From the NCBI GenBank assembly GCA_048886185.1, contig JBHLKY010000015.1:1-32000 (forward strand): DNA of 32,000 nt, in the 5' to 3' direction. The translations under genes were made by a program, and so were the position numbers. Source of the stretch: Candidatus Hermodarchaeota archaeon. GTDB taxonomy: Archaea > Asgardarchaeota > Heimdallarchaeia > Hodarchaeales > Hodarchaeaceae. The notes under the pieces are model-generated. The model searched no databases and was not told the DNA's origin. It worked only from the letters and a program-made list of their open reading frames with translations. Below are positions 26,959 to 30,358 of this stretch, piece after piece. The number at the start of each line of letters is the position of its first letter. Positions within the stretch are counted from its first letter, which is position 1.

Positions 26959-27861
26959 TTAAATGAATACAAGATTGTTATTCATCTTGGTTTTTAACAA
27001 ACGATAATAATAAATGATATTTTTATAATCATTTCTCACAGGAATCATTTTTTTGGAACTCACTCTCACTCTAGATCCTTCAATATCGATCAATGAAAAA
27101 TAATAACAAGTTAATGGTCCAGGATTCAAATAAATGGTGTTTTTCCATTTTTTAATCGTAGGAAGTTCATGATAATGCCCAAATATTGATATTCTAGGCT
27201 TCATATGATTTATTAGTTTTGAGATGGAAGTCGATCCCCCCTTCCTTATCTTCCCTTCTATTTCATATTGAAATGCGGGTGCTTCATGAGTGACCAAGAT
27301 GTCAACGGTTGATTTTTTTATATCCCTTTTTTTTCTTAATATTGGTTTCAAGCGAGAATAAAAATCGTTCGGATGGAATTCCATATCACATAAAGGAATA
27401 TTATACTGTATTGGAATGAATTCTGATCCACCATAGCCCGCTATTTGTAAGTTACTGAATTTTTTCCTTGTTGTACACAAAAAAGATATTTTCGTGTTTG
27501 GCCATGTTTTTAACAATCGCTGTACCTCATAACTATCTACATTACCAGGTATATAAACTATAGGTGCTTTTAACGAACCTAATAAGGTTAGGATAGTTTT
27601 GACAGATTTGATCTGGGCGTGTACAAATTGTTTTCTTCCTCGTCCCTTGTAAACCCAATGTGTGTATTTTCTCTTTGAAAGATTGCCATGAGTCAAGATA
27701 TATTGAAGAATCAATCGGATAGGTGTAGTTTCAGGTAGATCCCCCGCAATTAAAATAAGATCTACTTTGATTTTACTCTCTTGAATTGTTGTTAGTAATT
27801 TGGAAACAGCTTTTGTGTTTCCATGAATATCCGCGAGAACTAAAATTCTGTAAATATACAT
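26959..27861 (-). CDS. Calcineurin-like metallophosphoesterase
   Basis: ADIHGN, IAGD, PGNVD, VTHE, FGHYHE, YLNPG. ATG 27861 preferred over 27942. Confidence 0.92.
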   Translation of the reverse strand: MYIYRILVLADIHGNTKAVSKLLTTIQESKIKVDLILIAGDLPETTPIRLILQYILTHGNLSKRKYTHWVYKGRGRKQFVHAQIKSVKTILTLLGSLKAPIVYIPGNVDSYEVQRLLKTWPNTKISFLCTTRKKFSNLQIAGYGGSEFIPIQYNIPLCDMEFHPNDFYSRLKPILRKKRDIKKSTVDILVTHEAPAFQYEIEGKIRKGGSTSISKLINHMKPRISIFGHYHELPTIKKWKNTIYLNPGPLTCYYFSLIDIEGSRVRVSSKKMIPVRNDYKNIIYYYRLLKTKMNNNLVFI

Positions 27862-28011
27862 CACACTAACCAATTCTTGATAATCATGATTTCCCAAACA
27901 AATTTGAAATAATTTTCCCATGATAAGGAAAAAAAATTTCATTATTCCCTGTATAGAATAATTATTTTCTTAATTTAACGTTCAAAGGTTTTTTGGAATT
28001 TCAGAGCTGAT

Positions 28012-28551
28012 TTATCTTATTGAGTGGTCTAGAATGTGTTTTCCTAGTAAAATAAATGGTTCCAAAGTGTTTTGCTGCTCGATCGTACTAGTCTCAACAA
28101 TTGGTGTGGCAAGACCAGTCTGGTTTGTGATAATTTTAGATAATAAGATACCTTCTTCAGCTGTCACAAATTCAGACATTTGATCACGTAAATCAATTTT
28201 ATTTGCAACTAGCACAATAGGAATCTTTCCTGTGTGTTCTAATAACTCATTTGTCCATCGTGGTATGTTTTGATACGTTTCACGACGAGAAACATCAAAA
28301 ATTAGAATTGCCCCGTTTGAACGACTGTAAAATTGATGTCTAATAGATTGGAAAGATTGTTGCCCTGAAAGATCCCAGATTTGGAAAACGATCTTACGGG
28401 AATCAACATCAAATACTTTACGACCAATATCCACTCCAATTGTAGGTTTATACGTCCCTGATATCTCGCCTCCTAAAAATAATTTAACAAAAGTTGTTTT
28501 ACCTACTGCATAGTCTCCACAGATAACTATCTTTGACGTGTGAGTCAACAT
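28012..28551 (-). CDS. Rab-like small GTPase (Ras superfamily)
   Basis: G1 GDYAVGKT, G2 PTIG, G3 WDLSGQ, G4 NKID, G5-like ETST; RabF-like IGVDI, FQIW, SFQSI, FYSRS, LIFDVS. Confidence 0.93.
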   Translation of the reverse strand: MLTHTSKIVICGDYAVGKTTFVKLFLGGEISGTYKPTIGVDIGRKVFDVDSRKIVFQIWDLSGQQSFQSIRHQFYSRSNGAILIFDVSRRETYQNIPRWTNELLEHTGKIPIVLVANKIDLRDQMSEFVTAEEGILLSKIITNQTGLATPIVETSTIEQQNTLEPFILLGKHILDHSIR

Positions 28552-28576: not shown

Positions 28577-28858
28577 TTATCTATACTTGTGTCCTTCTTG
28601 GAGTAAGCGCTCATCGATTTTTTCTTCTTCATCTGCTAATGTAAATCCTGCTCCAATTCTTTTTCCTGTTGCTAGTAGAAATCCTGATCTACAAATGCTT
28701 TCTGCTTGCCGACGAGCTGTTCTTCGCATAATTAAACCAGCTTCGGGGGAGTACTCCAACTTTCCTGTTTGCGTGGCTTCATCTAAGATCAGAACTGCGT
28801 CGCCAGTCTCCTCTCTACCTTCAGTAAACGACTTGTTCTTGAAAACTAGTCTAACCAT
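28577..28858 (-). CDS. Small hypothetical protein, possible single gelsolin-like domain
   Basis: 93 aa with AGGAG RBS, 25 bp upstream of and co-oriented with the GTPase. The fold is inferred only from sequence pattern; confidence refers to the CDS. Confidence 0.75.
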   Translation of the reverse strand: MVRLVFKNKSFTEGREETGDAVLILDEATQTGKLEYSPEAGLIMRRTARRQAESICRSGFLLATGKRIGAGFTLADEEEKIDERLLQEGHKYR

Positions 28859-29062
28859 GTTTCTTTACTCCTGTTAGTTTTTATTTTCTCTTTTTCCTTT
28901 AGAGTTATTATTTAATTGATCTGTATTCAACCCTTTTAGAACTCATTAAAAGTATTTGGAAATCAATTGTTGATACCTGATGTATATAATGATATTAATT
29001 GTGAGAAATTATAAACATATTCATTTGTATGTGAACTAGCATTTTTTAATGGATCTGTGATA

Positions 29063-29401
29063 ATGGTGAAACATCCTAAATTTGTCACCTCATTAGCGAT
29101 AATTGGTGACTCTTTTGACCAGTGGAAGAATATTAAGAAACTTTGTGATCAATCTACGCAATCTTATGGTCTTGGTCTTGGAATTTTATCTCGTACAATT
29201 GAGACAGATTTAGGCTACTTTCCTGTAAAATTTCTCGTTATATTTATAGAAAAAAAATTCACTCATAATATCAAACCCACTTTTAAATTTACAATGAATG
29301 AAATAACAAATGAAGGAATTGAAAATATTCTTACAAGAATCGGCCGAAAGACTATTATTAAAGCTCATATAAACATGAAAACTAAGATAAGCCAATTGTG
29401 A
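29063..29401 (+). CDS. Hypothetical protein resembling an internally deleted, inactive small GTPase
   Basis: LAIIGD (beta1), GLGILSRTIETDLGYFPVKFLVI (beta2-beta3) and PTFKFT...TNEGIENILTRIGRK (beta6-alpha5). ATG 29063 or GTG 29057. Confidence 0.6.
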   Translation: MVKHPKFVTSLAIIGDSFDQWKNIKKLCDQSTQSYGLGLGILSRTIETDLGYFPVKFLVIFIEKKFTHNIKPTFKFTMNEITNEGIENILTRIGRKTIIKAHINMKTKISQL

Positions 29402-29443: not shown

Positions 29444-30358
29444 TTATTTAGTACCTTCAATTTCATGCAATTTTGTTAAAAGGTCTTCCTGATCTTTTGT
29501 TAACGTCTTAGGATATTTATATTTCACTCTTACCTTTCTTTGTTTTCCATTTGCTGTATTGAAAGAAAGTACCGCATTTTCCTTCGTATTTTTAGGAATT
29601 ATTCCTTTCAATTCTTCTCCCAAAGGTGATTTAATTGTTAGATCTGATCCTCGGATAGCTAAAAAAATAGATATTGGGATTTCTAAAACATCATCTATTA
29701 AAGAGATTTCAACTAATAAATCTCCTGGGGGTCCTCCCATCTTCCCTAGATTTCCCTTGCCAGATATTCGTAGCACTTTACCGTTTTCAATATTAGGTGG
29801 TACCGGTATACGAATTTTTTCTTTTTTAATCGTTCCATTTTGAAATTTACGACTTAAACTGATCGTTTTTTTTAAGTTTGTGGGCATATCTTCGATTTCA
29901 GATGTTTTTATCTTTAAAGAAATTCTCACATTTGAACCTTTTTGAGGGCTTGGAGTACTTCTGAAAGGGCTTCTCTGACTAAAAAATGGAGAACCCTGGT
30001 GTTGAAAGGATGAAAAAATATCATCCCCCCCAAAAAATTGTGAGAATATTTCAAAAGGATCAATATCCATCCTAAATCCCCCTGGTCCCCCTCGAGTATG
30101 CTGAGAGAAAGCTTCATGGCCAAACATGTCATACTGTTGTCTTTTCTCCTTATCAGAAAGAACAGAATAAGCTTCAGAGATTTCTTTGAATTTTTCTTCT
30201 GCAACTTTTGGGTCTAAACCACTCTCTTTTGCTCTATCAGGATGGTATTTCAAAGCCATTTTACGATATGCTTTTTTAATCGCTGAAAGATCAGAGTTAC
30301 GAGAGACTCCAAGAGCGTCATAATAATCAGTTTTGCCCACAGAAGAGACCTCGTACAA
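29444..30358 (-). CDS. dnaJ: Class B J-domain co-chaperone (DnaJ/CbpA-like, no zinc finger)
   Basis: [24 protein letters not shown]-rich linker and GKGNLG...GGPPGDLLV; no CxxCxGxG repeats. Confidence 0.9.

Follow-up and report, generated by a model that had tools for sequence, protein, structure and literature searches.

Does a short open reading frame (ORF) beside a Rab-like GTPase gene of an Asgard archaeon encode a functional protein, and can such a protein be what remains of a small GTPase? The question is raised by the window analysed here, a stretch of 32,000 nucleotides (positions 1 to 32,000 of contig JBHLKY010000015.1, assembly GCA_048886185.1) from a Candidatus Hermodarchaeota archaeon, whose Hodarchaeales (Asgard) genome comprises 4.84 Mb in 75 contigs. 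The reading frame in question, hereafter the mini gene, is listed as a hypothetical protein in every source. An initial annotation made from the sequence took its product, the mini protein, for a miniaturised pseudo-GTPase in which both ends of the Ras fold are kept and the middle is deleted, possibly a decoy or adaptor or else a decaying duplicate. As indicated by our comparative analysis, the mini gene is a conserved gene under purifying selection, and its product is predicted to fold as a shortened G domain devoid of nucleotide-binding motifs. The explanation that we prefer, and to which we give as a whole slightly better than an even chance, is that the mini protein would be a half-size pseudo-GTPase which arose by deletion, binds other proteins independently of nucleotide and mimics an empty Rab.

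Conservation of the mini gene

The ORF at 29057-29401 on the plus strand is present and translates as the initial annotation had quoted it, including the segments FVTSLAIIGD, SFDQWKN at the place of the P-loop, GLGLGILSRTIETDLGYFPVKFLVI, a linker of 11 residues and PTFKFTMNEITNEGIENILTRIGRKTI. The GTG codon at 29057, from which that reading started, is an in-frame alternative start. The likely start is the ATG at 29063, where the relatives and the database copy P0001 (112 aa) begin, and for this reason the likely coding sequence is 29063-29401.

Database searches revealed about 30 relatives of 76-120 aa, of which 16 are close and about 10 distant. The close relatives (103-120 aa), retrieved by a word-indexed search of 5.8 billion proteins, show 55-66% identity and 30 invariant columns. 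The distant members, found at 32-42% identity by an exhaustive HMMER profile search of 1.84 billion representatives, are all <=112 aa long, and the short length is thus constant even at this low identity. The same profile search returned no longer true relative; three long matches (1032, 1412 and 1100 aa) were rejected as spurious, being TPR, MBG and cadherin/PKD repeat proteins that score via many short stretches.

Among 22 genomes of one Hodarchaeales genus, the mini gene is represented by a single intact copy in 13 and is missing from nine, and it was found neither in two sister-family genomes nor in ~190 further genomes of the phylum sample. The family is therefore confined to one genus and dispensable in some of its species. 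None of the 13 genomic copies carries an internal stop or a frameshift, and the pairwise ratio of nonsynonymous to synonymous substitution rates (dN/dS), taken from pairs with unsaturated dS, lies at 0.14-0.32, which indicates purifying selection on the mini gene; the neighbouring genes show values of 0.03-0.18. The mini gene is the fastest-evolving gene of its neighbourhood, with 33-66% identity vs 50-81% for the neighbours. Judged from the conserved relatives, the stop-free copies and the dN/dS values, 29063-29401 is a real gene and more than a chance ORF. In the relatives, the frame is intact and the protein equally short, which was one of the checks that the initial annotation had proposed. 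The copy of genome G107 (L043 3531-3830, minus strand) ends about 12 residues early, giving a protein of 100 aa (...RLGKKNNN) with a shortened C-terminal helix; either a genuine variant or an artefact of the assembly or of a frameshift may account for this.

Predicted fold of the mini protein

AlphaFold2 was run on alignments of 16 and of 26 more diverse sequences. With 26 sequences, all five models reached a predicted local distance difference test (pLDDT) score of 88.0-89.3 and a predicted template modelling (pTM) score of 0.79 and displayed one topology, the elements of which are listed in Table 1. The stretch that is most conserved within the family is the long hairpin with its preceding short strand, equivalent to the switch-I/interswitch region of small GTPases.

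Comparison of the model with the PDB by Foldseek gave a best E of 6e-3, which is weak, with top rows that were almost all Ran, Rab or Arf proteins; about 60-70 residues of the switch-I/interswitch part align to Ran and Rab at ~4 Å. Structural alignments to Rabs cover 92-99 residues at 2.5 Å out of 162-178 Rab residues (~60%). They begin at Rab residue 5 and reach the end of the last Rab helix (residue 178) with only ~99 residues aligned, and the VIA chain ranges end at Rab residues 175-187, that is in alpha5. Because the alignments run from the first strand to the last helix and yet cover ~60% of the Rab, the predicted model supports a G domain of which both ends are kept and the middle is missing, in agreement with the initial annotation. 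The assignment of the mini protein to the G-domain fold class is likewise supported by prediction. A full G domain has a six-stranded sheet and five helices in 160-180 residues; the 112 residues of the mini protein are predicted to form beta1, a short strand, beta2, beta3, one more short strand and two or three helices.

Absence of nucleotide-binding motifs and sequence comparison with GTPases

Neither the mini protein nor the family consensus nor any member contains the motifs GxxxxGK[ST], DxxG, [NT]KxD or SAK (G1, G3, G4 and G5). The position of the P-loop is occupied by GDSFDQWK, and one subgroup carries a further one-residue deletion there. The absence of the P-loop, G3 and G4 noted in the initial annotation consequently extends to all nucleotide-binding motifs, and since all of these are lost, nucleotide binding by the mini protein is very unlikely.

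When the family was aligned by hhalign to an alignment of 27 Ras-like proteins from the same genome, the whole family gave P 0.052, with the best local match exactly on beta2-beta3. After splitting, the N part lay co-linearly on the segment from beta1 to beta3 (P 0.028), and G5/alpha5 was the best match of the C part (P 0.047). The sequence signal thus agrees with the structure in position and is not significant alone. NCBIfam returned no match for the mini protein. Further candidate matches were dismissed as chance, namely an aldehyde dehydrogenase (E 0.15) and a copper ATPase domain (E 0.33) among the PDB-sequence rows, and an own-genome match on contig C57 (E 0.1) which lies out of frame within an acyl-CoA-synthetase-like gene.

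Proposed origin and mode of action

According to the explanation we prefer, the mini protein would be a stand-alone half-size pseudo-GTPase of 112 residues, in which a Rab-like G domain is reduced to beta1, alpha1, the switch-I/interswitch hairpin (beta2-beta3), one more strand and the C-terminal helix. Along with the P-loop, G3, G4 and G5, the block from alpha2 to alpha4 would have been lost, and with them GTP binding and hydrolysis. Such a protein would most likely have originated in an ancestor of one Hodarchaeales genus by an internal deletion in one of many Ras-family paralogues, followed by fast divergence. Selection would then maintain it as a nucleotide-independent protein-binding module that is fixed rather than switching. 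As a permanently empty Rab mimic, it might occupy a regulator, either resembling a guanine nucleotide exchange factor (GEF) or of the roadblock or longin type, or an effector of a true GTPase, and this partner would be titrated by a competitor or scaffolded instead of being switched. The decoy or adaptor function put forward by the initial annotation could be accommodated in this way.

The working model of an empty Rab mimic was suggested by a structure ranking taken over Foldseek's 999 best chains. The six best-ranked of these are nucleotide-free Rabs held by exchange factors: 9rs9 (Rab23-Fuzzy-Inturned, 8.8), 9rs7 (Ypt7-Mon1-Ccz1, 7.8), 5ldd (Ypt7-Mon1-Ccz1, 7.5), 9l0d (human MON1A-CCZ1-C18orf8 complex, 7.2), 6djl (Rab11A-SH3BP5, 7.1) and 4lhx (Rab8-Rabin8, 6.9). 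Nucleotide-bound Rabs score <=6.8, and 9rs9 alone stands more than one Z unit above them, so the ranking is to be read as a pattern in predicted structure and not as proof. The structure 9RS9 contains the nucleotide-free mutant Rab23 N121I (PMC12383261). The likeness of the model to the empty state fits a pocketless protein frozen in the shape which exchange factors recognise. Eleven Roadblock matches in the genome provide candidate partners; the SNARE-type Longin Pfam model had 0 matches in this genome, and also 0 in the control genomes, and is thus uninformative. A bolder version of the proposal, in which the mini protein would act as a natural, encoded dominant-negative mini-Rab of 112 residues that holds or titrates an exchange-factor-like regulator of the expanded Hodarchaeales Rab-like GTPases, is speculative and in our judgement unlikely.

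Weighing of the explanations

A number of observations weigh against the descent and the function proposed above. The mini protein had no Pfam family at E<=1, in the same search in which the adjacent 179-aa GTPase was recognised as Ras (E 2.5e-37). No GTPase was among the matches of the exhaustive HMMER profile search, and GTPases were not enriched among the weak own-genome HMMER matches (2 of ~190, with ~2 expected by chance). Column shuffles reached the split hhalign scores in 6/60 and 1/60 trials, the full-length hhalign path puts the C-terminal helix on alpha3, not alpha5 (probability 1%), and the sequence does not settle which pieces of the G domain were kept. As to structure, AlphaFold2 with 16 sequences produced one confident model (pLDDT 82) and four poor ones, with the same topology as the second run; the ESM Atlas model is poor (pLDDT 0.44), has mixed structural neighbours and gave no feature match; and all structural arguments are built on a predicted model. 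Finally, two relatives (G102 and G209) keep the whole gene block including the GTPase operon without the mini gene, which is therefore accessory and not required for that operon. Similarity of profiles to small GTPases, which the initial annotation had named as a check, was thus not clearly obtained (no Pfam family, no GTPase by HMMER, hhalign P 0.03-0.05 and the shuffles), and of its reading as a GTPase paralogue the shortened G-domain fold stands as a prediction, while homology in sequence is not significant and descent is inferred. Because of this lack of sequence significance, the case for GTPase homology rests on the predicted structure. The genome has 63 Pfam Ras matches, and 74 ORFs match a profile made from the genome itself; some of the Ras matches are internal-stop copies or partial G-domain ORFs (e.g., C17:21728-22234, C12:149229-149744 and C4:200610-201065), from which it appears that GTPase paralogues are turning over. 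In view of so many family members, a number of which are broken or incomplete, the most economical origin for the mini protein is descent from a GTPase, and we consider it somewhat probable.

The most serious competitor is a small alpha/beta protein of independent origin, lineage-specific, possibly arisen de novo or from another fold, that converges on the beta1-alpha1-hairpin arrangement and whose function is unrelated to GTPase signalling. We regard this as possible and yet doubtful, since two independent models and two aligners alike led to match lists of almost nothing but G domains, and since the best of the weak profile alignments coincide exactly with the segments that are equivalent in structure. 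An antiparallel beta2 beside beta3 is a hallmark of this GTPase class and is predicted here too, and the Ras-family genes of the genome could have been the source. The mini protein could also be a truncated GTPase of another kind, in which the N-terminal half from beta1 to alpha3 is kept, with switch II/alpha2 shortened, and the long C-terminal helix corresponds to alpha3 instead of the far end of the fold. In the realigned full-length hhalign path, residues 75-100 fall on alpha3 and the end of beta4 of the Ras-like profile; by topological reasoning, beta1 has to be the partner of the last strand, which would then take the position of beta4 in a G domain; and the genome has Ras-like ORFs matching only the N-terminal 113-126 profile positions. 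Against these points stand the very low probability of that path, the better match of the C part on G5/alpha5 when it is aligned alone, and the extent of the structural alignments (92-99 residues at 2.5 Å), which end in alpha5, and we consider such a truncation improbable. As regards a decaying duplicate or a spurious, functionless ORF, this would agree with the faster evolution of the mini gene relative to every neighbour, with its absence from nine genomes of the genus and with the C-terminally shortened copy of G107. It is nevertheless effectively refuted by the 13 copies free of stops and frameshifts, the dN/dS values, the 30 invariant columns among close members, the length that remains constant at 32-42% identity and the confident predicted fold, and the alternative of decay raised in the initial annotation fails on purifying selection.

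Genomic neighbourhood

The block Trx - DnaJ - mini gene - 93-aa gene - GTPase - phosphoesterase - KaiC-like is syntenic in five relatives, and in all relatives examined the mini gene is followed on its 3' side by the DnaJ gene (Table 1). The divergence of the mini gene from the Rab operon across ~200 bp, described in the initial annotation, holds in the window, where 198-204 bp separate the start of the mini gene from that of the 93-aa gene (28858), but it is not constant in relatives: a 513-aa gene lies between the two in four of the five syntenic relatives, at the head of the 93-aa/GTPase operon, and two relatives are without the mini gene. The 513-aa ORF (L041 6564-8105, plus strand; L042 4227-5768, minus strand) has no Pfam or NCBIfam match, and the genome of the window holds just one paralogue of its product, 29% identical and located elsewhere (C3:204392-205918). 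The block GAAATTATAAACAT of the intergenic region, which contains the TATA-like element, is common to the closest relative (G172), and TTATAAA is a possible archaeal promoter. A scan for sigma-70 promoters and terminators remained at background level; such models are not applicable to archaea.

A search for a remnant of the mini gene in the 317-bp gap of G102 and G209 found none. In a midpoint-rooted tree of seven concatenated neighbour proteins, the root of which is not secured, these two genomes form a pair that is sister to the group of the window. The topology implies loss of the mini gene in G102 and G209, as far as the insecure root allows. The 317-bp spacers of the two genomes (L064 7943-8259 and L065 8065-8359) are similar by eye, which points to a regulatory region that is conserved or to a small element missing from the annotation.

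The 93-aa protein has itself no Pfam or NCBIfam match. Its residues 2-92 match the C-terminal part of ORFs of 386-402 aa from the same genus (L058 601-1776, L059 1501-2706 and L061 601-1758), which carry two Pfam Gelsolin repeats (E 1e-20 to 1e-22), and the protein probably represents a divergent gelsolin-type domain that stands alone and is co-transcribed with the Rab-like GTPase. The gene is very conserved (74-81% identity, dN/dS 0.03-0.18). A 96-aa ORF antisense to it (28587-28877, plus strand) appears conserved in relatives as well, most likely only because the sense gene is so strongly conserved.

Table 1. Coordinates of the mini gene, its predicted structural elements and the neighbouring features in the window
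Feature	Coordinates	Strand	Basis
Coding sequence of the putative truncated Rab-like protein, 112 aa; stop TGA at 29399-29401	29063..29401	+	ORF list, alignment of relatives, stop-free copies, dN/dS
Predicted strand beta1 (residues 7-15, VTSLAIIGD), site at which the P-loop is missing (G15-K22, GDSFDQWK) and predicted short helix alpha1 (18-25)	29081..29137	+	AlphaFold2 secondary structure, motif absence
Predicted short strand (30-34) and long beta2-beta3 hairpin (37-48, 51-63); switch-I/interswitch region	29150..29251	+	AlphaFold2, alignment, hhalign, Foldseek
Linker with six-residue helix (64-69), in place of all between beta3 and the last G-domain strand	29252..29284	+	AlphaFold2, alignment
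Predicted short strand (75-77) followed by the helices of the C-terminus (78-84, 86-111), aligned with Rab alpha5; basic tail	29285..29395	+	VIA chain ranges, split hhalign
Divergent intergenic region with TATA-like TTATAAA at 29009-29015, 54 nt upstream of the ATG	28859..29062	.	Sequence
93-aa protein encoded by the first gene of the divergent operon; probably one gelsolin-type domain	28577..28858	-	Sequence match to Gelsolin-carrying ORFs
Complete Rab/Ras-family GTPase, 179 aa, intact G motifs	28012..28551	-	Pfam Ras E 2.5e-37
Metallophosphoesterase, same minus-strand operon	26959-27942	-	
DnaJ-type co-chaperone, convergent with the mini gene	29444..30358	-	

Significance

In the literature, Hodarchaeales are named as the closest relatives of eukaryotes among the Asgard lineages. 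Asgard archaea possess large expansions of Ras, Rab and Arf-like GTPases, the regulators of which are mostly unknown and not predictable from operons (PMC10933270). If the proposal is true, a conserved G-domain fragment with a regulator-facing surface (the switch-I/interswitch hairpin) and no nucleotide binding would broaden the concept of pseudoGTPases to include a truncated form, indicate the extent to which a G domain can shrink and still fold, and serve as a handle to fish out GEF-like or effector partners in Hodarchaeales. The dominant-negative mini-Rab, if it exists, would represent a mode of control of GTPase networks that has been described neither in archaea nor in eukaryotes, and would set the lower size limit for a G-domain fragment that folds by itself. 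All of these functional claims are drawn from a predicted structure.

Comparison with known GTPases and pseudoGTPases

The closest known counterparts of the mini protein are the Rab/Ras small GTPases (PF00071), above all the nucleotide-free Rabs in GEF complexes (9RS9; 9RS7 and 5LDD), which its predicted model resembles in the core of beta1, alpha1, the switch I strand, beta2 and beta3 and in the C-terminal helix. Its gene adjoins that of a true Rab-like GTPase, in a genome rich in Ras-family matches. G domains usually comprise 160-180 residues with five G motifs (PMC12490416). Unlike these, the mini protein is without G1, G3, G4, G5 and the alpha2-beta4-alpha3-beta5-alpha4 block and shows no significant profile similarity; by every sequence criterion it falls outside the Ras family.

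Class i pseudoGTPases, such as the N-terminal domain of AAGAB, have a canonical fold, do not bind nucleotide and serve as interaction modules, the AAGAB domain spanning residues 2-177 (PMC12490416). Judged from AAGAB, the members of this class (the N-terminal domain of AAGAB/Irc6p, CENP-M, and pG1 and pG2 of p190RhoGAP) keep the full-size fold, whereas the mini protein is about a third shorter. The AAGAB and p190RhoGAP examples are domains of larger eukaryotic proteins, while the mini protein is free-standing and archaeal. By analogy, it might work like a class i pseudoGTPase. In the literature searched, we found no report of a half-size or truncated pseudoGTPase.

Dominant-negative, nucleotide-free mutants are known of the Ras S17N type, and Rab23 N121I and Ypt7 N125I have been used to trap GEF complexes. 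The empty-pocket conformation of such mutants binds exchange factors stably (PMC12383261). It is these trapped states that the predicted model of the mini protein most resembles. The mutants are laboratory point mutants of full-length GTPases, whereas the mini protein would be a natural, truncated and permanently empty form with putative binding to GEFs.
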